Assembly (NCBI RefSeq): GCF_000012805.1
Contig: NC_007484.1
Coordinates: forward strand, 1,170,001-1,202,000
Length of the DNA: 32,000 nucleotides
Reading direction: 5' to 3'
From: Nitrosococcus oceani ATCC 19707
Lineage (GTDB): Bacteria > Pseudomonadota > Gammaproteobacteria > Nitrosococcales > Nitrosococcaceae
Numbering within the stretch: position 1 is the stretch's first letter; every line of letters begins with the position of its first letter. The position numbers and the translations under genes are program-made. Under the pieces are notes generated by a model, which was given only the letters and a program-made list of their open reading frames with translations, was not told where the DNA came from and made no database searches. This document shows, one piece after another, positions 11,542 to 21,634 of this stretch.

Positions 11542-11886
11542 TTAGGCTTTTCTTTTCTTTTTTTCTTGTCGGATTCTGGGTAAGAAGCTTAGAAACAAAA
11601 AATAAACGAAGAGAGAGCCCATAATAATATGTAACGGAAGCCAGGGAATCTGTAGCACTTCTAGCGTGGCGTTCGCGTTTCTCAGGTCACCTTCTTTTAT
11701 AAAGGGGGTCAGCGTGACAAAAGCTTTAGTCAAGGCGGTATTCCAGATGCTTAGGCAGGCGTAGGTTATAAATGTAATAACCTGGAGTGAATTAAATAGC
11801 CGCTCGTATTTTTCAGGACGTTGATAGGCAAGATAGGTAATTCCTATAACCGCTATTACTATCGTGAGGTAAAATATTTTATCCAT
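11542..11886 (-). CDS. small integral membrane protein, last gene of the minus-strand cluster
   Basis: Three or four hydrophobic helices and a KKKRKA tail. It overlaps the GT gene stop by 8 nt, implying co-translation. Confidence 0.5.
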   Translation of the reverse strand: MDKIFYLTIVIAVIGITYLAYQRPEKYERLFNSLQVITFITYACLSIWNTALTKAFVTLTPFIKEGDLRNANATLEVLQIPWLPLHIIMGSLFVYFLFLSFLPRIRQEKKKRKA

Positions 11887-12955
11887 AGAATGTCTTAGGT
11901 GGTTCCTGTTTTTTAAAGATTGCCAAAAAATACTGAAATGTTATTTCCCAAGTCGGAAAAAAAGCTCCCACCGGGTTTTTTTGTGCTTGTTGCTTTAAAA
12001 GCAAAAGTTTTTTGGGATGATAAAGTAATTCTGCCAAGGTTGCCGCAAATTTTTTTCTATCCCCTCTTGGAATTAAAAACCCATTTTCTCCCTCTTTAAT
12101 CCACTGCTGGGTTTCCCCTACCTGGTAGGCTAAAACAGGGACACCCATAGCCGCCGCTTCAGCGATAGCCATGCCGTAGGACTCAAAACAGGAAGCTGAA
12201 ACCAATAAGTCAGCCCCACGTAATGAGGGGCCGATGAGTGAGTGGGGGATGCCATGGCATACATGAATCGACTTTTTTAACTCGCTATTTCTTAGTTTTC
12301 TTTTAAAGCGGTGATGAATGTCGGGCTCTCTATGTAAATCGCCAAACAGCCGCCACGTGCCTTTAAAGACGGGGTTTATTTGCTGTAAGTGGGATAAAAT
12401 TTCTAATTGTCCTTTACTACGGCTTAAGGTTCCTAACGTTATCAATCGGGGCCTGGAATCTTTTTTCCAGGGATCGGGCTGAGGCGTACCGGATTCAGTA
12501 AACTCAATCCCTGGCGGGCAATGACGGATAGGCCCCGCGTATAACGACTCGCTTTTTAAATAACTTGCCAAGGTGGGACCAGGGACGATTACTGTATCCG
12601 CTAGGGCGAGTAACGCATGTTCTTTTTTTTGCAAGGTTTTTCGTTCCGCTGAGGAAAGGAAGGGGTCCATGCAAGGCAGAAAGTGGAGCAAGAAATAGAG
12701 ATAAGTCGGGTGATTCCGGCTGCTGAGGGCGCAGCTTAGACGGGCAGGATTGAGGGTGGTTAGGTAAAGGCTGTCCAGGACAATATGGGCTGGCGACGCA
12801 GAGGGTAGGGTTAGAATTTTTTCAGGTACTTGCTGGGAGAGAGCATAAATGCCGGCGCCAGTGCCAGTAGTAGTAAGACCTTTCCGCAGCATTTCGTTGA
12901 CCCGGAACCCTCCTGAAATTTGGGCCTTGGGCGCTGGCGCCAGCAGGTAAATCAT
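11879..12955 (-). CDS. GT-B glycosyltransferase (GT4 / group 1)
   Basis: The C-terminal half carries ADLLVSASCFESYGMAIAEAAAMGVPVLAYQVGETQQWIKEGENGFLI, the E-x7-E donor-binding motif region of group 1 glycosyltransferases. Confidence 0.8.
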   Translation of the reverse strand: MIYLLAPAPKAQISGGFRVNEMLRKGLTTTGTGAGIYALSQQVPEKILTLPSASPAHIVLDSLYLTTLNPARLSCALSSRNHPTYLYFLLHFLPCMDPFLSSAERKTLQKKEHALLALADTVIVPGPTLASYLKSESLYAGPIRHCPPGIEFTESGTPQPDPWKKDSRPRLITLGTLSRSKGQLEILSHLQQINPVFKGTWRLFGDLHREPDIHHRFKRKLRNSELKKSIHVCHGIPHSLIGPSLRGADLLVSASCFESYGMAIAEAAAMGVPVLAYQVGETQQWIKEGENGFLIPRGDRKKFAATLAELLYHPKKLLLLKQQAQKNPVGAFFPTWEITFQYFLAIFKKQEPPKTFYG

Positions 12956-12958
12956 GGC

Positions 12959-13339
12959 TCAAGAGACCGGTCCTTCATAGGAGCCCCAAGCCACGTGGCT
13001 TTCTTCCAAGGTGATTTTGAGCTTTCCCTGGAAGGTGGCGCGGACTCGTTTGGCGAGTTGGCCATGAATATAGTGGGCCAAATATTCGGTTGTGGTATTG
13101 GCGCCACGGAATGACTGTTCTTCATCTAGATTTTTGTAATTAAGCAAGGCGAGGACTGCTTGCAGGGCCTTAAGGGCTAGGCCAATGTCAATCACTATGC
13201 CATCCTGGTCCAGTTTCTCAGTATGAAACTCGGCGATCACATTGTAAGTGGCCCCATGAAGTCCCTGGGCAGGACCAAACACCTCTCCTTGTAGGCTATG
13301 GGCAATCATAAAATGGTCTTTGACGGCAAGGGTATACAT
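12959..13339 (-). CDS. divergent 6-pyruvoyl-tetrahydropterin synthase / QueD-fold protein
   Basis: FMIAHSL......GPAQGLHGATYNV...D.DGIVIDIGL..A..A.L..LNYKNLDE follows the PTPS/QueD (COG0720) layout. Several catalytic positions appear substituted (see findings). Confidence 0.65.
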   Translation of the reverse strand: MYTLAVKDHFMIAHSLQGEVFGPAQGLHGATYNVIAEFHTEKLDQDGIVIDIGLALKALQAVLALLNYKNLDEEQSFRGANTTTEYLAHYIHGQLAKRVRATFQGKLKITLEESHVAWGSYEGPVS

Positions 13340-13344
13340 AACAT

Positions 13345-14376
13345 TTAGGCTTTGTGGAGTCGAGGATGAAAGGGTGGATAGGTCACGGCAAAGGAAAAGT
13401 CGACCGGATTTTTATGGTAGAGTTCCTGCATAAAAAGAGGCAGGCTCTCAAAGGTGATCGCTGGGGCAATAAGAGCATCAAGTAAGGGGCTTTGCAAATA
13501 ATTCAGGGTCTGCTCTAAACGCTGCTGGTGGCTCGTATGTTCCCGCTTGGGTTTGGCAATCGTGCTGACTTGGGAAGAGAGAATCTGTTTCCTTTGGAAG
13601 TGAAAAGATCCGCCCAGGTTAAGGGTGACTGGCTGATGAGCCAACCAGCTCACCTCAATGACTTTTCCTTCAAACCCCACGCTATCCAAGGCTGTTTGCA
13701 GTCCTGCTCCTTGTCCCGAGGCATGAAAACAGAGGGAAAATACCCCCTGGGGGGCCTCCTGGACTTCAAGGACAGTAAGTCCCCATCCTAGTTTTTCAAT
13801 GAGTTGCCGACGCTGCGGATCGCGCTCAATGATAATAGGGAAGGCATCCCAGGCGGTTTTGAGCAAAAAGGCGATAAGCAAGCCCACAATGCCGCCACCG
13901 ACGATGGCTACCGGCGCTGGCGCCTGGTATTCGCTGTCCCAAATGGCGTTCAGGGCGGTTTCCAGGTTAGGAAGCAGCGTAGCCCGTAGAGGGGGTATAT
14001 CCTGAGGGAGGGGTAATAGTTGCTTATTGGGGACAATTGCGTAATCTTGGTGGGGATGCATGGTAAAGACGAGCTGGTCAGCGTAGGGGCCATTAATAGC
14101 CTGGCCTAGGAGGCAATATCCGTATTTGACTGGCAGCTTGAATGATCCCCCCATAGCAGGGCAAGCCATGGCTTGCTGGCATTCCGCGGGTACCTTCCCC
14201 AATCCGACCAATCGCTCTGTCCCAGGGCTGATTCCAGTTAGCCAGGTTTCAAGGAGGCTATAACCCACTGGTACCGGCACAGAGAGCGTTTCCTGGCGAA
14301 TGGCGCCTTTCCCGGACGCTTCCACCCAATAAGCCCGGGCAATAGATGGGACTAAGCGTGGTGGCGGGGTAGACAT
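13345..14376 (-). CDS. MDR-superfamily (zinc-type alcohol dehydrogenase-like) oxidoreductase
   Basis: About 340 aa. The central Rossmann motif is PVAIVGGGIVGLLIAFLLK, with a GroES-like N-terminal half. The ATG at 14376 is the only start in the N-terminal region. Confidence 0.65.
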   Translation of the reverse strand: MSTPPPRLVPSIARAYWVEASGKGAIRQETLSVPVPVGYSLLETWLTGISPGTERLVGLGKVPAECQQAMACPAMGGSFKLPVKYGYCLLGQAINGPYADQLVFTMHPHQDYAIVPNKQLLPLPQDIPPLRATLLPNLETALNAIWDSEYQAPAPVAIVGGGIVGLLIAFLLKTAWDAFPIIIERDPQRRQLIEKLGWGLTVLEVQEAPQGVFSLCFHASGQGAGLQTALDSVGFEGKVIEVSWLAHQPVTLNLGGSFHFQRKQILSSQVSTIAKPKREHTSHQQRLEQTLNYLQSPLLDALIAPAITFESLPLFMQELYHKNPVDFSFAVTYPPFHPRLHKA

Positions 14377-15452
14377 TCCAGCAATATTTCCTTATCAAGG
14401 CAGAAGTGAGTCATATGAAAATAGGTTCCCTCCTGGATACGGGCAACTGGAGGGAGCTGGAAGGAAGGTAAGCCAGAACCCAGCAGAAGCGGTGCAATAT
14501 GGAGGTGAAGCAAATCCGTTTGTCCTCCCGCCAGAAAAAAAGAGAGGGTTTTGCCCCCACCTTCCACGAAGACGGAGCGTATTCCCAGAGACCAAATTGT
14601 TTCTAATACGGCTTTTAAATCCATAAGTTTGCCGTTTTTCTCTCCCGCTTGATTTCTTACTCCCAGGGGGATGACTTTTTCGGGAATGGCATGGTGTGTT
14701 TCTATTTTATTTAGGCTATCTGAATGGAGCAACCAATTATGACCCGGTTCCTGGAAAATTCGGTAGGGCTTTTCTCCAGTCAGTAAATGGCATTGACGGT
14801 CAAGAATTACCCGTTTAGGATTTTCCCCCGGAACCTCGCGTACCGTGAGGCGGGGATTATCTTTTTCTACTGTGCCCCGGCCCACCAACACGGCATCATG
14901 AAGGGCCCGGAGACGATGGGCGTGTTTGCGATCGGCATAGTTACTGATCCACTGGGAGTGACCACTTGCAGCAGCGATTTTACCGTCCAAGGTTTGTGCC
15001 AGGTGAGCACTAATCCATGGTAGGCGTTTTTGGGATGCGATATGATGGCCGGCGAGGCAGGGCAAATAAAGACGAAAAGCGGTGAGCAAATGGCTGGGCA
15101 GCCTGGGGCCGCGGGAATGAATCCAAGGCGAGGCGCCGAGAGATAGCGCTGAAGGATCAAAAGCTAGCAGTGTGGGAATATGGACAATAGCTACCTCGTT
15201 TATATGAGGATAAGGCGGCTTGGGCGTGGAGAAATAAACGATAATAAGCGCTTTGGGCGCGGTTTTTACTATTATGTCCAGACTAGCCGTAAAGCGCCAT
15301 CGAGACGGTTGCTGTTCCGTCTCAAAAGGATAGAAGAAAACATAGGGAACCTCCGGCGCGGTGCTATGGTTTTGGCGCCAACGTTTAAAATCAAGCAGAC
15401 TCTCCCAGATTTGATTAACTGAAGAGTCAAGTATGGCACATTCCATAAGCAC
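14352..15452 (-). CDS. RibD C-terminal (pyrimidine reductase / DHFR-like) domain protein with ~150-aa unknown N-terminal extension
   Basis: PWISAHLAQTLDGKIAAASGHSQWISNYADRKHAHRLRALHDAVLVGRGTVEKDNPRLTVR...RVILD...IRSVFVEGGGKTLSFFLAGGQTDLLHLHIAPLLLGSG is the RibD_C pattern. The first ~150 aa are unrecognised. Confidence 0.75.
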   Translation of the reverse strand: MLMECAILDSSVNQIWESLLDFKRWRQNHSTAPEVPYVFFYPFETEQQPSRWRFTASLDIIVKTAPKALIIVYFSTPKPPYPHINEVAIVHIPTLLAFDPSALSLGASPWIHSRGPRLPSHLLTAFRLYLPCLAGHHIASQKRLPWISAHLAQTLDGKIAAASGHSQWISNYADRKHAHRLRALHDAVLVGRGTVEKDNPRLTVREVPGENPKRVILDRQCHLLTGEKPYRIFQEPGHNWLLHSDSLNKIETHHAIPEKVIPLGVRNQAGEKNGKLMDLKAVLETIWSLGIRSVFVEGGGKTLSFFLAGGQTDLLHLHIAPLLLGSGLPSFQLPPVARIQEGTYFHMTHFCLDKEILLECLPRHHA

Positions 15453-15497
15453 TAAATTGCTCTATTCCTTAACGATTGGCACTGAACGCGAATTTTT

Positions 15498-16238
15498 ATG
15501 GCTGAAGGTTACCACAACCACATTTTCCGGCAACAATACCGCAGGCTCCTGATTTTTCAATCATTAATTTCTGTTTTATTGCTGGCGGCTAGTGCATTTT
15601 ATCTACAAAAGGTTCCCGCTGGCTATGCTTTTGTCATTTCCGTTGCCGTCTTTTGGCTTCTGGGCAGCCACGGTTTCCTGATCTATTTCCTCCGTGCTTG
15701 GCGAACGCCTGCGGATTGGGCGACGCTGCTGCGGTTTTTTTTAGCAATCGCAGGCTTGTTGATAGCCATTTTTGGGGGGGCGCTGCTATGGATTCTGGTC
15801 ATGACGAGCCTGGCTTCCCTGGGCGATTGGCTGGATGGCTGGCTGGCTGACCGCTACGGCGGAACTTCTCAGGGGGCAATCCTGGATGCTGAAACCGATC
15901 AAACGCTGATTTTTATGCTCGCGGTATTAGGGGCTAGCGTGGGAGGTTTGGCCTTGTGGGTGCTTTTATTTCCTGCTTATCGCTATGGGTATATCTTATT
16001 GTTGGAAATTTTTGCGATTCCTGCGGATGATCCGAAGCCCAAGGCCGGAGATAATTTTCGGGGCCGGATTGCCTGTGCGACCATCCAGGTGGCTTTGTTA
16101 GCTAATCTGTTGCCCTCTTTGGCTTTGCCGGTAAAAACTCTATTCAGTGCTTTAGCGCTTGGTTTTCTGACCTATTCTTTCGCTGATGATCTTTTTTATC
16201 AGTTCAAGGCGCGCTTTGCCTCTTTTCTTCGTTTCTAG
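15498..16238 (+). CDS. CDP-alcohol phosphatidyltransferase family membrane protein
   Basis: GDWLDGWLADRYGGTSQGAILDAETDQ matches D-x2-D-G-x2-A-(R)-x7-8-G-x3-D-x3-D, except that Asp replaces the usual Arg, with Arg one position later. Six hydrophobic helices. Confidence 0.75.
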   Translation: MAEGYHNHIFRQQYRRLLIFQSLISVLLLAASAFYLQKVPAGYAFVISVAVFWLLGSHGFLIYFLRAWRTPADWATLLRFFLAIAGLLIAIFGGALLWILVMTSLASLGDWLDGWLADRYGGTSQGAILDAETDQTLIFMLAVLGASVGGLALWVLLFPAYRYGYILLLEIFAIPADDPKPKAGDNFRGRIACATIQVALLANLLPSLALPVKTLFSALALGFLTYSFADDLFYQFKARFASFLRF

Positions 16239-16257
16239 AAGGTTTGATGTCAGGATC

Positions 16258-16920
16258 ATGTCTGCTTTCGAGCTAATTATATTAGGTGCTTATGGGTTAA
16301 TGGTGGTTGAATTAGTTTTTTTGCCAGTGCCCAGTGAAGCTTCCACTTACCAACTGTTAGCCTCCAAGCCCCAGGGGCAATGCCTTTCAGGGGGGCTGCG
16401 TCAGGCCCATCAGGCTTCGTTAGGGCGCAAGTTATTGATTTTTTTATTGCCTACGGGGCTGATTCTAATTGCTTTTTTGCTCCCCTTGGGACAAATATTT
16501 TTCCCCCAGCTAAAGAATTATTTATGGCCTATCTCTATTTTTGAAATTCCTTTATTTCGGTGGGTAGCGATAGGCTTGATTATTTCAGGATCGGTTTTCA
16601 CTTTGATAAGCGTACTGGAAATGCGTGGGGGGATGACTAAAAATCCTTTCAGAAAAATAGGATCGGAGTTACAGTTTCAAGGACCATTCCGATGGTCCCG
16701 CAATCCAGGCTTAGTGGGGAATTACGGACTATTTCTTGGACTATTCTTTTATTTCCCTAGCCTGGTGATGGCTTTGGGCATGGGGGTTTATCTTTTGAGT
16801 ATGCATCATCGTATTTTGCTAGAGGAAAGTCAGTTAGAGGTTCGGTTTGGTGAGACTTACCGTGCTTATCAGCGCCGCGTGCCCCGCTATTTAGGTTTTC
16901 GCCAGTCGGTAATTAAATGA
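16258..16920 (+). CDS. ICMT/PEMT-like membrane methyltransferase
   Basis: The C-terminal GPFRWSRNPGLVGNYGLFLGLFF......HHRILLEESQLEVRFGETYRAYQRRVPRYL is the isoprenylcysteine carboxyl / phospholipid methyltransferase signature. I prefer ATG 16258 over ATG 16186, which overlaps the upstream gene. Confidence 0.7.
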   Translation: MSAFELIILGAYGLMVVELVFLPVPSEASTYQLLASKPQGQCLSGGLRQAHQASLGRKLLIFLLPTGLILIAFLLPLGQIFFPQLKNYLWPISIFEIPLFRWVAIGLIISGSVFTLISVLEMRGGMTKNPFRKIGSELQFQGPFRWSRNPGLVGNYGLFLGLFFYFPSLVMALGMGVYLLSMHHRILLEESQLEVRFGETYRAYQRRVPRYLGFRQSVIK

Positions 16921-17028
16921 TTGATAAGGTTTTTTGTGATTGGGTGCAGCCATAGGCGGGCTGAAGTGGTTTTTGCTAAGATAAATCCTTTCTTTTACAT
17001 AATCAGAATAAAAAAATTGGAAAATTTT

Positions 17029-17598
17029 ATGTTACGTTTTGCTGGGACGGTGATGATATCTTGGTTGTTCCTGGGGGGGCTTGCCGAAGCTGGGGAGCCT
17101 GGCAATGGAAAAGAAGGCACTAATGAACGGGTTATCATGGGATGGGTGGAGCCAGTGGTTCTCATTCCTTGGGGTGTTGAACTTAAGGCAAAGCTAGACT
17201 CCGGCGCTAAAACCTCATCATTGCATGCTGAAGATATTGAGCGGTTTAAGAAAGATGGCGAGGAATGGGTGCGCTTTGTGATTGATATAGAAAGAAAGGC
17301 GAAAAAGATAAAACAGCTCCACGTAGAACAGCCATTAGCCCGTGATGTGCATATAAAGCGGCATCGGGGCAGCGCAAAAAAACGGCCTGTAGTTAGTTTG
17401 GAATTTTGTTTAAACGGTAAACGCCATAAGGCTCAGTTTAGTTTAGTTGACCGTAGCCAGTTAAATTACCCAGTACTTTTGGGCCGCCGTTTTCTGAAAA
17501 AGGCGGCCCTTATTGATTCCGGTAAAATCTTCCTTACGAGGGAAGGATGGAAGACTTGCTTGGTAGAATATGCTGCCGGCGAAGCTCCTAAAAGTTAA
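17029..17598 (+). CDS. retropepsin-like aspartic peptidase (family annotated 'putative ATP-dependent zinc protease', COG4067)
   Basis: Signal peptide MLRFAGTVMISWLFLGGLAEA. IMGWVEPVVLIPWGVELKAKLDSGAKTSSLHA contains the D-S-G aspartic protease motif. The C-terminal part reads NYPVLLGRRFLKKAALIDSGKIFL. Confidence 0.75.
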   Translation: MLRFAGTVMISWLFLGGLAEAGEPGNGKEGTNERVIMGWVEPVVLIPWGVELKAKLDSGAKTSSLHAEDIERFKKDGEEWVRFVIDIERKAKKIKQLHVEQPLARDVHIKRHRGSAKKRPVVSLEFCLNGKRHKAQFSLVDRSQLNYPVLLGRRFLKKAALIDSGKIFLTREGWKTCLVEYAAGEAPKS

Positions 17599-17635
17599 GT
17601 TCTTGCGCTAGGCTCAGCAGTTTGGAAAATAAAAT

Positions 17636-19174
17636 TTGAAGAATCTCCATATTAAGATCCTTGCCTTTCTCCTTGTGATGATCGGCTTAGGCTTGGCTTA
17701 TTATAAGGTGACGCGGCTTGGTTTGCCGGTATTGCCAGCCGAGCAAACCGAAGTTTGGATGGTAGAGGCCCGCCTCGCCTTTGAAGCTAAAGGCGGTCCG
17801 GTGAAGGCGCGCTTCTATATTCCAAACGCTCCCCCCGGTTTTACTGTTGTGGGAGAAGACTTCATCTCTAGTAAATATGGTTTAACCATGGATGAGGGGG
17901 ACATTAATCGTACCGCCCAATGGGCGGTACGCCGGGCCGAGGGGAAGCAGGTGTTGTACTACCGGATTGAATTGGCACCTGAGATTGCCCATATAAAACC
18001 ACAGAAGGGGAATATCCCCCCCTTTCCGGCCGCCCCCGATTATCCTGAGCCCATGGGCTCGGTGGTGCAGGCGTTATTAGAAGAGGTGCGCCGTAAATCA
18101 GCTGACGTAGCTTCCTTTTCCGGGGAACTCCTGGCCCGCCTCAATGCTTCTAATCCTACTGAAAATGTTCAGATTTTGCGCAAAGGCATTGAAAGTGCGC
18201 ACGCCTGGGTAAAACAAGTGATTTATATTTTGGCCGGCGCCCGGATTCCTGCCCGTATGGTTTATATCTTGCCATTAAAAGGCGATGTGAGTCATAGTAA
18301 GTTGCTTCCTTGGCTAGAAGTCCATAATGGACGGGAATGGCTAGCTTTTAACCCTAAAACGGGAAGCCGGGGATTCCCTGCGAACGCATTGATTTGGCAT
18401 GTGGGCGATGAGCCCTTGCTCGAGCTGGAGGGAGGCGAATCACCTAAGGTGGAATACTCTGTCTCGAGTCGTTTTCAAGAATTGGTTTTGGTCGCGGAGC
18501 AGCGAGCGCGGCAAATTAACTCTCTGATAATGGATTTTTCCCTATTTAGCCTCCCCGTGCAGACCCAGAATGTCTACCGGGTGTTACTGTTAATTCCTAT
18601 TGGGACTTTTTTGATTGTCGTGCTGCGAAACGTTATTGGCATTAAAACGTTTGGTACATTTATGCCTATTTTGATAGCCCTGGCATTCCGAGAAACCGAT
18701 CTTTTGTGGGGAGTCGCGATGTTCACTGGGATCGTGGCTGTTGGTTTGATACTGCGTTTTTATTTGGAATACCTTAAACTGCTGCTAGTGCCACGCCTAG
18801 CCTCGGTGCTGGTGATGGTGATTCTTTTAATGGCGGTTATCAGTGTGCTGACTCATAAAATGGGGCTAGAACGGGGCCTGTCTGTGGCCCTCTTCCCGAT
18901 GGTGATTTTGACCATGACCATTGAGCGCATGTCCCTGGTTTGGGAGGAGCATGGCCCTGGAGAAGCGCTGCAACAAGGGCTTGGAAGCTTGCTGGTGGCT
19001 ATATTGGGTTATTTATTAATGGCCAATAAGCTATTGGAGCATCTGGTTTTTGTTTTTCCTGAATTGTTGTTGGTGGTGTTAGCCATGACCTTGTTGTTGG
19101 GCCGTTATACGGGCTATCGGTTAACGGAGATTTGGCGTTTCAAGGAGTTTTTGCGGAAAACGGAACTTCCATGA
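17636..19174 (+). CDS. inactive transglutaminase-like domain fused to a 7-TM module
   Basis: One N-terminal TM helix is followed by a periplasmic part with a transglutaminase-like core, AGARIPARMVY...LPWLEVHNGREWLAFNPKTG. The expected Cys/His/Asp positions look substituted. About seven hydrophobic helices span aa ~310-500. The start is TTG 17636 (alternative ATG 17678). Confidence 0.7.
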   Translation: MKNLHIKILAFLLVMIGLGLAYYKVTRLGLPVLPAEQTEVWMVEARLAFEAKGGPVKARFYIPNAPPGFTVVGEDFISSKYGLTMDEGDINRTAQWAVRRAEGKQVLYYRIELAPEIAHIKPQKGNIPPFPAAPDYPEPMGSVVQALLEEVRRKSADVASFSGELLARLNASNPTENVQILRKGIESAHAWVKQVIYILAGARIPARMVYILPLKGDVSHSKLLPWLEVHNGREWLAFNPKTGSRGFPANALIWHVGDEPLLELEGGESPKVEYSVSSRFQELVLVAEQRARQINSLIMDFSLFSLPVQTQNVYRVLLLIPIGTFLIVVLRNVIGIKTFGTFMPILIALAFRETDLLWGVAMFTGIVAVGLILRFYLEYLKLLLVPRLASVLVMVILLMAVISVLTHKMGLERGLSVALFPMVILTMTIERMSLVWEEHGPGEALQQGLGSLLVAILGYLLMANKLLEHLVFVFPELLLVVLAMTLLLGRYTGYRLTEIWRFKEFLRKTELP

Positions 19175-20106
19175 TCTTTCCTTGGCGGCGTTTACGGCAG
19201 CTGGGGGTTCTAGGCATGAACCAACGCAATGCCGACTATATTTTGCCCTTTAATCCGCGGCATCATTATCCGTTAGTGGATGATAAAAGACGCACTAAAC
19301 AATTGGCTTTAGCGGCGGGGATTGCCGTGCCCAAACTTTATGGCGTCGTGGAAATGGTTCACCAAATTAAACGCCTGGATAAGCTGCTCGGCCCCCATGA
19401 AGATTTTGTTATCAAGCCCGCCCATGGCAGCGGCGGAGAAGGTATTCTGGTGGTTAACGGGCGCTATCAAGGGCGTTATCGTAAGGCGAGCGGGGTTATC
19501 CTGACCGCAGAAGAAATCGGCCACCATATCGCCAATATTCTGAGTGGCATGTATAGCCTGGGAGGATTGCCCGATACCGCGCTTATCGAATACCGGGTCA
19601 AGTTTGATCCCCTGTTTGAGGCTGTTAGCTATTTAGGAGTCCCGGATATCCGTACCCTGGTTTATCGAGGGATACCCGCCTTGGCGATGATACGGTTACC
19701 CACGCGCCTTTCGGATGGCAGGGCCAATTTACACCAAGGGGCTATTGGCGTGGGTATTGATTTGGTGACTGGCCGGACTAGTGCTGGCGTATGGCAAGAA
19801 CATGCCATTGACCGTCATCCTGATACGGAGGGGGAGATACGCAATTTAAGGATACCCCACTGGGAGAGCGTTCTTGAGTTAGCTGCCCGCTGCTTTGATT
19901 TAGTGAATTTGGGTTATATTGGAGTTGATATTGTGTTAGATCGGGATTTGGGCCCCATGGTTCTGGAGCTTAATGCCCGTCCTGGTCTTAGTATTCAACT
20001 GGCCAATAAGGTGGGGCTGCAGCCCCGCCTCCAGCGCATTCAAAGGCTGAGTGAAATTCCCTCCTCCGCCGCTGAACGGGTGGCATTAGGAAAATCTTTG
20101 GCATAA
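19171..20106 (+). CDS. RimK-related ATP-grasp (alpha-L-glutamate ligase-like) protein
   Basis: MIFPWRRLRQLGVLGMNQRNADYILPFNPRHHYPLVDDKRRTKQLALAAGIAVPKLYG...DFVIKPAHGSGGEGILVV...VLELNARPGLSIQ matches the alpha-L-glutamate ligase-related family. The ATG overlaps the upstream stop (ATGA at 19171-19174). Confidence 0.8.
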   Translation: MIFPWRRLRQLGVLGMNQRNADYILPFNPRHHYPLVDDKRRTKQLALAAGIAVPKLYGVVEMVHQIKRLDKLLGPHEDFVIKPAHGSGGEGILVVNGRYQGRYRKASGVILTAEEIGHHIANILSGMYSLGGLPDTALIEYRVKFDPLFEAVSYLGVPDIRTLVYRGIPALAMIRLPTRLSDGRANLHQGAIGVGIDLVTGRTSAGVWQEHAIDRHPDTEGEIRNLRIPHWESVLELAARCFDLVNLGYIGVDIVLDRDLGPMVLELNARPGLSIQLANKVGLQPRLQRIQRLSEIPSSAAERVALGKSLA

Positions 20107-20613
20107 TTTTATGTCTATAAATACATTTGATTCTGGGCCTTGTCGCCACCGTCCCATTTGCCGATTAGCAGGCCCGTAGCTACTTAATAACAGGCCCTAT
20201 AGGAGGGCCTGTCCCCCGTGGTGGAGTGGATAACATTGGCGAAAGCAACGCCTAGAGAAGCCAGCAAATACTCCCGGCGTGATAAAAACGCCCACACCGA
20301 TTATGTTACCCGCCGATCGCGACAAATCCTGGCACGGCGCTTTGAGCCCATTGCTCCTTAGTAATCAATAAGCCTCATTTCACAGGGGGAGTCGGTTCTC
20401 TTAATTTATTAAGTTTAAGTGCCTGGCGTTCACAGCGCCTTACCTGTTCCAGGGTTGCCACCATGAAATCTTCTCCTTTTTTCTTTTCCACTTATTTAAG
20501 CGTTTCTGGAGTTTTTTTAGCTGGCCGTGCTTCTTAGGATAACATCTGAGTAATCTCTCAAGTGAAATATCGCTACCTTTAAGATTCCTTGCTTCTTTTT
20601 CCCAGGCGTCAAT

Positions 20614-20826
20614 TCACCACCATTGGACAAATTCCTTGACGGCTGTTTTCCCTCGCCCTTTGACTTCGGTTGGTTGGGCTTCGGTCTCGATGGGTGGGCA
20701 TTCTTTATCCAATGCCTTAAAGCCTTCCTCCCGCAGCGCTGCGCTCTCTTTCCTGTATCGATCCAGTTCTCGAAGCGTTTTTATATGATCTTCAAGATTA
20801 TGAGCATGTTCTCTGATATTGTTCAT
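20614..20826 (-). CDS. small coiled-coil protein, probably the 5' piece of a broken gene
   Basis: A strong RBS (GGAGAGG) lies 4 nt before the ATG. The 70-aa ORF ends ...EFVQWW-TGA. The same frame stays open for 57 more codons to 20443 (TAA stop at 20440-20442). Confidence 0.45.
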   Translation of the reverse strand: MNNIREHAHNLEDHIKTLRELDRYRKESAALREEGFKALDKECPPIETEAQPTEVKGRGKTAVKEFVQWW

Positions 20827-21064
20827 GAGCCTCTCCTTCTCTATGACAGACTCCTATCTAGTTCTGTAGTCAAAAACAAGGCAAAAAGCAAACAAAGAAT
20901 GAGGTTGTTTTCCCCAACCCGGTTATCGTTGGGGGTGAGCGCCTATGCTTCTCTTCCTTTTGTTATGCCGAGGCAGATCTGAGGAGGAGAGATGTTCCAG
21001 GGCTTACTGGCAAGCCGGGGTGTCGCTGAACGAGGTTATCCTAGGAAATCAGCGGAGCCTGGAA

Positions 21065-21634
21065 TTAGCGAGATTCCAGATGCCTTTGAAGCACTGCGAA
21101 GTCTTGCTCTAGCGCTGTTTTCTTGGTTTCGTCCCGCAGGGCCGCCGCGGGATGGTAGGTAACGAAGGTGGGCAGCTTTTTGACTTCTACCCATTGGCCC
21201 CGCAGCGCGGTGATTTTTGCCTTAGGATCGAGCAGGGCTTGGAGGGCGGTTGCCCCTAGTAATATCAATAGCTGGGGTTGGAGAAGCTCAATTTGCCGCA
21301 GCAAAAAAGGGAGTTCTCTTTTAATTTCGCTGCGATAAGGTTTGCGGTTGCCGGGAGGATGGGTTTTAAGAATATTGCTGATATAGACGTGCTCTCGTTT
21401 CAAGCCGATTTGATGCAATAACTGGGTGAGCAATTTTCCCGAGCTTCCCACAAAGGGCCGGCCGGTTTTTGCTTCCTGGACGCCCGGCGCTTCACCGATA
21501 ATCATGATTTCTGCCGGGGATGGGCCTTCTCCGAATACCAATTTTTCGCCTTTGGGCACTTCGGGACCCAGAGAGCGCTCGCAGTGCCATTTTAGCTCCT
21601 GTAGCGTAACGGCCTTTTCTAAAAAATCATCCAT
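21065..21634 (-). CDS. family 4 uracil-DNA glycosylase
   Basis: IMIIGEAPGVQEAKTGRPFVGSSGKLLTQLL (GEAPG..E...G.PFVG.SG motif) and the C-terminal TYHPAAALR. Confidence 0.85.
   Translation of the reverse strand: MDDFLEKAVTLQELKWHCERSLGPEVPKGEKLVFGEGPSPAEIMIIGEAPGVQEAKTGRPFVGSSGKLLTQLLHQIGLKREHVYISNILKTHPPGNRKPYRSEIKRELPFLLRQIELLQPQLLILLGATALQALLDPKAKITALRGQWVEVKKLPTFVTYHPAAALRDETKKTALEQDFAVLQRHLESR

Follow-up and report, generated by a model that had tools for sequence, protein, structure and literature searches.

The rloABC genes form a named operon in Pseudomonas aeruginosa (PA14_41690/41710/41730, corresponding to PA1768-PA1766) and are also described for P. fluorescens (Lormand et al., mBio 2025, PMC12239564). 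Here, we analysed three genes located at positions 17029 to 20106 on the plus strand of a 32,000-nucleotide stretch of the Nitrosococcus oceani ATCC 19707 genome (NC_007484.1, positions 1,170,001 to 1,202,000; the whole stretch is referred to as the window, and positions are counted from its first letter), which, judged from their sequences, are very probably the Nitrosococcus-type orthologue of this operon. Crystal structures have been solved for RloA, which is a homodimeric retropepsin-like protein with a basic channel. In vitro, RloA cuts runs of at least eight glutamate residues and leaves a mixed aspartate/glutamate (D/E) run uncut. Lysine and arginine residues of RloA are needed for this cleavage of polyglutamate (polyGlu), and the polyGlu-coordinating residues are also needed in vivo in Pseudomonas (PMC12239564). 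All three secreted RloA paralogues together are needed for salt-free growth, biofilm formation, beta-lactam tolerance and a normal cell shape, and the rloA1-3 triple deletion leads to hypo-osmotic death in low salt, which is rescued by deleting either rloB or rloC (PMC12239564). Transposon hits in PA1766-1768 were also obtained in an exopolysaccharide suppressor screen (PMC7314104), and disruption of an RloB-type gene in Shewanella resulted in altered vesicle production (PMC12096838). An earlier interpretation of the window made from the letters alone (the sequence-only reading) had stated that no substrate or phenotype was shown for such a system; with the polyGlu cleavage and the hypo-osmotic death reported for the Pseudomonas operon in 2025, this statement is out of date (PMC12239564).

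A retropepsin-like peptidase and an ATP-grasp ligase are likewise combined in the RimB-RimK(-RimA) system for the polyglutamylation of ribosomal protein S6 (PMC11957791), and RimK is the nearest solved fold of RloC. However, RimB has no signal peptide, RimK contains a Rimk_N domain, the system has no membrane partner, and N. oceani possesses its own RimB-RimK pair elsewhere in the genome. RloA is able to cleave RimB substrates in vitro, but no genetic interaction between the Rlo and Rim systems was seen in Pseudomonas (PMC12239564).

The N. oceani locus shares with Pseudomonas rloABC the three protein families, their order and their location on a single strand. In both cases, RloA is predicted to be secreted and has a D(T/S)GA motif, the basic channel residues and a cysteine pair of the periplasm type, RloB combines a dead transglutaminase domain with seven transmembrane (7TM) helices, and RloC is a cytoplasmic ATP-grasp protein. 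In addition, both genomes contain one or more extra secreted RloA paralogues and a separate RimB-RimK pair. The N. oceani locus differs in its motif, which is DSG and not DTG, in the number of secreted paralogues, with two in N. oceani compared to three in P. aeruginosa, and the similarity between the proteins is moderate. As an orthologue of a published system, the locus is ordinary, and its genes can be annotated as rloA, rloB and rloC. The points that are new are small, namely a cysteine-free RloB with A188, L224 and N239 at the positions of the catalytic triad, and an 838-aa fusion relative of the active transglutaminase type.

Proteins encoded by the N. oceani locus

The first gene, rloA (17029-17598, plus strand, ATG start), codes for a protein of 189 aa that matches PF05618 (Zn_protease) with an E value of 2.9e-38 in a profile search. 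Its N-terminus reads MLRFAGTVMISWLFLGGLAEA up to an A-x-A site and continues with GE; judged by eye, n-, h- and c-regions can be distinguished, as in a signal peptide, over approximately aa 1-21, which are composed of MLR, FAGTVMISWLFLGGLA and EA, with G as the residue after the site. In contrast, the cytoplasmic RimB-like paralogue from the same genome begins with the polar stretch MTTRQEPDKEDFF, which does not have the form of a signal peptide. The predicted catalytic residue is D57 in the DSGA motif (locally K55-L-D57-S-G-A), and the basic channel residues would be K55, R105 (in PLAR), R119 (in RPV) and R142 (in DRS). Their match to the P. aeruginosa numbering (K46, R92, R114 and R137) was deduced from the motifs, and the spacing of 23 between R119 and R142 is equal to that between R114 and R137 of the P. 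aeruginosa protein. RloA aligns with the PDB chains 9g58 (E 3e-22) and 9g59 (E 2e-18), both of which are Zn_protease-domain chains corresponding to the RloA structures of PMC12239564, and with the Legionella chain 2pma (E 2e-12). KLD(T/S)GAKT, PLAR, RPV, the first cysteine and DRS all align with the PDB chains. C127, which forms a pair with C177 in the C-terminal tail, corresponds to the cysteine of 9g58 that is the first of the periplasm-type disulfide. The mature protein is basic, with 33 lysine and arginine residues versus 22 aspartate and glutamate residues. The four species of the genus all have serine in place of threonine in the catalytic motif, as do two other loci in the order.

Within the order, the RloA orthologues of another genus, g5 (loci L031-L046), lack the cysteine pair for the periplasmic disulfide and carry a conserved Ala-Cys-Pro near the N-terminus. 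This motif might be a lipobox, so that genus g5 may possess lipoprotein versions of RloA; the start codons of these genes were picked automatically and are uncertain.

The second gene, rloB (17636-19174, plus strand), follows rloA with a spacing of 37 nt and encodes a protein of 512 aa. Its TTG start is the first start codon past an in-frame TAA and gives the N-terminal sequence MKNLH, which is the consensus N-terminus of 46 homologues. RloB matches PF14400 (Transglut_i_TM, E 3.8e-54) and PF14402 (7TM_transglut, E 9.1e-110). According to the hydropathy profile, a first transmembrane (TM) helix at aa 4-22 is followed by a soluble transglutaminase-fold domain of about 290 residues (approximately aa 23-310), a 7TM bundle at aa 316-488 and a conserved basic tail of 24 residues (aa 489-512). 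With one N-terminal TM helix, a soluble domain and seven further TM helices, the protein is predicted to have its soluble domain on the periplasmic side and its tail on the cytoplasmic side of the membrane. The protein does not contain a single cysteine, and the positions of the Cys/His/Asp triad, which are occupied by C, H and D in the two relatives at L047 and L048 described below, are A188, L224 and N239 in RloB. None of the 46 homologues has a cysteine in the catalytic column, and RloB gave no match to PF01841, the family of active transglutaminase-like cysteine peptidases. An AlphaFold2 (AF2) model based on the 46 homologues had a mean predicted local distance difference test (pLDDT) score of 79, and the best Foldseek match of the soluble domain was 3isr, a transglutaminase-like putative cysteine protease (E 5e-8). 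By sequence, RloB had no match in the PDB, and the 7TM part was also without a fold match among solved structures. Invariant charged residues are present inside the 7TM helices (R331, R352/E353, R374/E378, R387, E430/R431, E437/E438 and E476), and the tail contains the residues G489, R490, Y491, G493, Y494, R495, E498, W500, R501 and F502, which are invariant among the 46 homologues.

By analogy to S6 and RimK, the C-terminus of RloB itself was considered as the acceptor of a glutamate tail added by RloC. We rejected this idea, as conservation does not extend to the terminal residues: the last residue is a proline in 10, a glutamate in eight and a glycine in eight of the 46 homologues, with other residues in the remainder, and the only conserved feature at the C-terminus is the helix G-R-Y-T-G-Y-R-L-x-E-L-W-R-F.

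The third gene, rloC (19171-20106, plus strand), codes for a protein of 311 aa. Its ATG overlaps the TGA of rloB in the sequence ATGA at 19171-19174 (spacing of -4 nt), and the TIGR02291 alignment opens at this ATG and not at a TTG located further upstream. The overlap indicates translational coupling of rloC to rloB, and together with the 37-nt spacing it would favour co-transcription of the three genes. RloC scored 474 bits against TIGR02291 ('alpha-L-glutamate ligase-like protein', cut-off 314) and also matched PF14397 (ATPgrasp_ST, E 1.9e-94). The ATP-grasp motifs VIKPAHGSGGEG, RANLHQGA, GVD and LELNARPG are intact in an alignment with RimK. No TM segments of consequence were found in RloC, which is therefore placed in the cytoplasm. 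The folds nearest to its AF2 model (pLDDT 84) are RimK (5zct, E 3e-11) and ArgX/LysX. On the other hand, RloC lacks the pre-ATP-grasp domain RimK_N (PF18030) and scores far below the cut-offs of the RimK models (41 versus 143 bits for TIGR00768, 18 versus 331 bits for PRK10446), indicating that it is RimK-like in fold but not a RimK.

The sequence-only reading had described the three products as an exported D-S-G aspartic peptidase-like protein, a membrane protein with a degenerate transglutaminase core and about seven TM helices, and a RimK-like ATP-grasp ligase whose start overlaps the preceding stop codon. Each of these descriptions is borne out by the features detailed above, and all three family calls hold in the profile searches (PF05618, PF14400 together with PF14402, and TIGR02291).

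Conservation of the three-gene arrangement

The conservation of the arrangement was assessed in 20 loci from the order and in a family-balanced set of 300 Gammaproteobacteria genomes. rloA, rloB and rloC are colinear on one strand in 19 of the 20 order loci. The exception (L049, G004:C1:978000-987000) comes from a 2.0-Mb genome of the same family and has rloB and rloC with an ATGA-type overlap and no adjacent rloA; its neighbours are HAD hydrolase and aminotransferase genes upstream and an overlapping HhH-GPD glycosylase gene downstream. Among the 300 genomes, PF14402 was detected in 54 and TIGR02291 (E <= 1e-20) in 50; a set of 14 control genomes gave no PF14402 match. All 50 genomes with TIGR02291 also contain PF14402, while TIGR02291 was found in none of 245 PF14402-negative genomes, and the matches in the four genomes with PF14402 only are weak and divergent. 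The ligase gene is located directly downstream of rloB on the same strand in 48 of the 50 genomes, and in the other two the arrangement is broken by contig ends. A PF05618 gene directly precedes rloB in at least 35 of the 50 genomes and is not adjacent in at least four. The three-gene arrangement seen in these sequences is thus conserved far beyond chance, in agreement with the proposal of the sequence-only reading that the genes form one conserved system.

Two relatives show a different form of the same association. At L047:2976-5492 (G306:C24), a transglutaminase domain, a 7TM domain and an ATP-grasp ligase are present in that order in a single protein of 838 aa from another gammaproteobacterium, which shares 28% identity with RloB along the full RloB length. 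At L048:2836-5365 (G304:C85), the same parts are encoded by two overlapping genes that are flanked by genes for TPR proteins. As in N. oceani, a 7TM_transglut protein is adjacent or fused to an ATPgrasp_ST ligase in these relatives, but their transglutaminase core is of the active type, with a match to PF01841 and with the Cys/His/Asp residues kept, and neither has an adjacent PF05618 peptidase gene; in the G304 genome, no PF05618 match was found at E <= 1e-10. In the fusion, the ligase follows the 7TM domain on its cytoplasmic C-terminal side, exactly where the tail lies in RloB. We also considered whether an active transglutaminase correlates with the loss of an adjacent rloA. This correlation is not clean, as G252 and G266 have the inactive type and yet no adjacent rloA.

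Three of these results are relevant to the RloC product and to the part played by RloB, namely that the two protein families occur together in 50 of 50 genomes with TIGR02291, that the RloB tail is conserved and that a natural fusion with an active-type transglutaminase exists. None of them is peculiar to N. oceani.

Proposed function and alternative explanations

A comparative-genomics prediction of amidoligase systems by Iyer, Abhiman, Burroughs and Aravind in Mol Biosyst in 2009 (cited in PMC12096838) is reportedly the source both of the Pfam families concerned and of the notion that a peptide tag or polymer is linked to the membrane. For the N. oceani proteins, we propose that the product of RloC is acidic, most likely a poly-alpha-glutamate-type chain or tail, and that RloC would be docked on the cytoplasmic tail of RloB while working. 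RloB would pass or present this product to the periplasm, where RloA would trim it and in this way prevent its accumulation. The published epistasis, in which the deletion of rloB or rloC rescues the loss of rloA1-3, suggests that the RloB- and RloC-dependent product is harmful in the absence of RloA, and the position of the ligase in the natural 838-aa fusion supports the docking of RloC on the RloB tail. In addition, a search of the N. oceani genome (3,481,691 + 40,420 bases) for open frames of 60 aa or more gave none with six or more consecutive glutamate residues, which means that a polyGlu substrate would have to be made enzymatically. We put forward synthesis by RloC, passage or presentation by RloB and trimming by RloA jointly as a tentative proposal, which is plausible but somewhat more likely to need revision than to hold in every part. 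The account as a whole, combining the rloABC identity, the proposed mechanism and a self-contained unit, is with good confidence the best explanation of the locus.

Several points weigh against this account. The Pseudomonas-calibrated NCBIfam models are not reached. NCBIfam holds models named RloA, RloA2 and RloA3 (NF052262-64), RloB (NF052267, 'osmotic stress tolerance membrane protein RloB') and RimB, and the N. oceani RloA scored 158.5 bits against RloA3 (NF052264, cut-off 210) and 103 bits against the RloA model (cut-off 280), while RloB scored 495 bits with a cut-off of 900. As these are 'exception' and narrow 'equivalog' models, the missed cut-offs mean that the N. oceani proteins are not the Pseudomonas proteins, yet they do not place them outside the family. 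Furthermore, the identity between RloA and the crystallised proteins is only about 35-40%, and the cleavage of polyGlu by RloA was seen only in vitro and with the Pseudomonas enzymes (PMC12239564). In Pfam, the ligase family is called 'sugar-transfer associated', which makes a non-peptide acceptor possible, and with a 7TM domain that has no solved relative, transport by RloB is a guess.

A more specific form of the proposal would be a membrane-bound synthase, in which RloC, sitting on the RloB tail, makes a poly-alpha-glutamate-type polyanion that is threaded to the periplasm by RloB and set in its length by RloA, and which buffers osmotic or ionic stress. We regard this version as possible but doubtful.

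One might alternatively speculate that RloC is not a polyglutamate maker and instead adds an amino acid to a peptidoglycan precursor, a lipid or a sugar, in which case the cleavage of polyGlu by RloA would be a proxy for that of another acidic substrate. This would fit with the full Pfam family name, 'sugar-transfer associated ATP-grasp', with cyanophycin synthetase, Ddl and PsnB ranking close behind RimK and ArgX/LysX among the Foldseek matches of RloC, and with the absence from RloC of PF18030, which is present in the true RimK of the genome. The cell-shape and beta-lactam phenotypes in Pseudomonas, which led the authors to consider peptidoglycan, point in the same direction (PMC12239564). 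However, the nearest solved folds of RloC are RimK and the LysW-Glu ligases ArgX and LysX, and the polyGlu-coordinating residues of RloA that are needed in vivo in Pseudomonas (PMC12239564) are conserved in N. oceani. Taking both sides together, a product other than polyGlu seems rather unlikely to us.

A signalling function from the outside to the inside is another explanation, and one that we consider unlikely. In this case, RloB would act as a 7TM receptor: a periplasmic peptide would be sensed by its dead transglutaminase domain, RloC would be turned on or off in response, RloA would degrade the signal, and nothing would be exported. The combination of an extracytoplasmic binding domain, a 7TM domain and a docked or fused cytoplasmic enzyme fits a receptor no less than an exporter, the published epistasis is equally compatible with it, and in Vibrio the operon is part of an envelope-stress regulon (PMC12239564). 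On the other hand, signalling would not account for the origin of a periplasmic polyGlu-like ligand, since no such ligand is encoded in the N. oceani genome and none was found in that of Pseudomonas (PMC12239564). The many invariant charged residues in the 7TM helices of RloB would also be more in keeping with a conduit than with a relay, although this is only suggestive.

Upstream cluster and genomic surroundings

Cooperation of the three genes with the upstream CDP-alcohol transferase/methyltransferase/pterin-like cluster (11879-16920), for example by glutamylation of its product, is highly improbable and close to refuted by synteny and by two marker genes. The sequence-only reading had pointed out that rloA directly follows the plus-strand arm of this cluster and had considered a functional connection conceivable. 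The adjacency on the same strand stands: the gap is 108 nt, without a convincing terminator in between, and the four species of the genus all share the arrangement. RloC also scores weakly against MptN, a methanopterin:glutamate ligase (35 bits, cut-off 350). The functional link, however, does not hold up, as the synteny is limited to the genus and none of the six cluster genes is found near rlo in the 16 other loci of the order. That reading had also suggested a co-occurrence analysis with the genes at 15498-16920; a homologue of the CDP-alcohol transferase gene at 15498-16238 (E <= 1e-15) was found in 0 of the 299 other genomes, although rloBC is present in 49 of them. For the reductase gene at 14352-15452, relatives (E <= 1e-30) were found in seven sampled genomes, four of them without rloBC and three with the gene on another contig than rloB. 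Finally, a conserved promoter-like block (16970-16982) separates the two units. A boundary between the cluster and the rlo operon is likely, and generic scans gave no significant terminator or promoter there. The rlo operon is in all likelihood self-contained and no part of the adjoining lipid/pterin-like cluster, which is to be analysed separately.

The block at 16970-16982, TTTTTGYTAAGAT, is the sole conserved block in the otherwise diverged intergenic region 5' of rloA in the four species of the genus. It resembles an extended -10 element (TG-n-TAAGAT) without a recognisable -35 element, and the plus-strand sequence TTTTTGCTAAGAT is located about 47 nt 5' of the rloA ATG. We propose this block as a candidate promoter of the rlo operon; it was not flagged in a generic sigma-70 scan. 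At the other end of the operon, a G+C-rich hairpin of 9 bp (20190-20212, plus strand), which has no U tract, lies 84 nt past the rloC stop codon. Its sequence is unique in the genome and its predicted fold has -21.3 kcal/mol with a z-score of only -1.5. The hairpin was not called in a terminator scan and, as weak evidence, may mark a possible end of the transcript. In promoter and terminator scans of 15300-21200, sites were no more numerous than in shuffled sequence, and the folding of the hairpins at 16947-16963 and 20190-20212 was not significant.

Besides rloA, the genome contains two further PF05618 genes. One codes for an orphan secreted RloA paralogue of 194 aa with a DTGA motif (C1:625386-625793, L002:1426-2010, minus strand). 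The other belongs to the RimB-RimK pair (C1:1718812-1722213, L003) and encodes the cytoplasmic RimB-like protein of 164 aa directly 5' of the true rimK; the latter (L003:526-1431) has both PF18030 and PF08443 and is followed by another open reading frame (L003:1-522) that runs into the edge of the locus. Such a set of genes is also described for rlo-bearing genomes in PMC12239564. About 5 kb before the window, the genome's only open frame with an acidic run of at least nine residues is located on the minus strand (C1:1164942-1165412). The encoded protein (156 aa) is secreted, His-rich and CpxP/Spy-like, contains LTxxQ-type motifs and ends in EDEDDEDDD. This protein is probably not a substrate of RloA, because the Pseudomonas enzyme left a mixed D/E run uncut.

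No convincing gene was recognised in the approximately 950 nt 3' of rloC (20107-21064), a region that includes a stretch (20375-20826) flagged in the sequence-only reading as a broken small gene. In public records, near-identical relatives of the N. oceani proteins are labelled 'inactive transglutaminase family protein' and 'alpha-L-glutamate ligase-like protein'.

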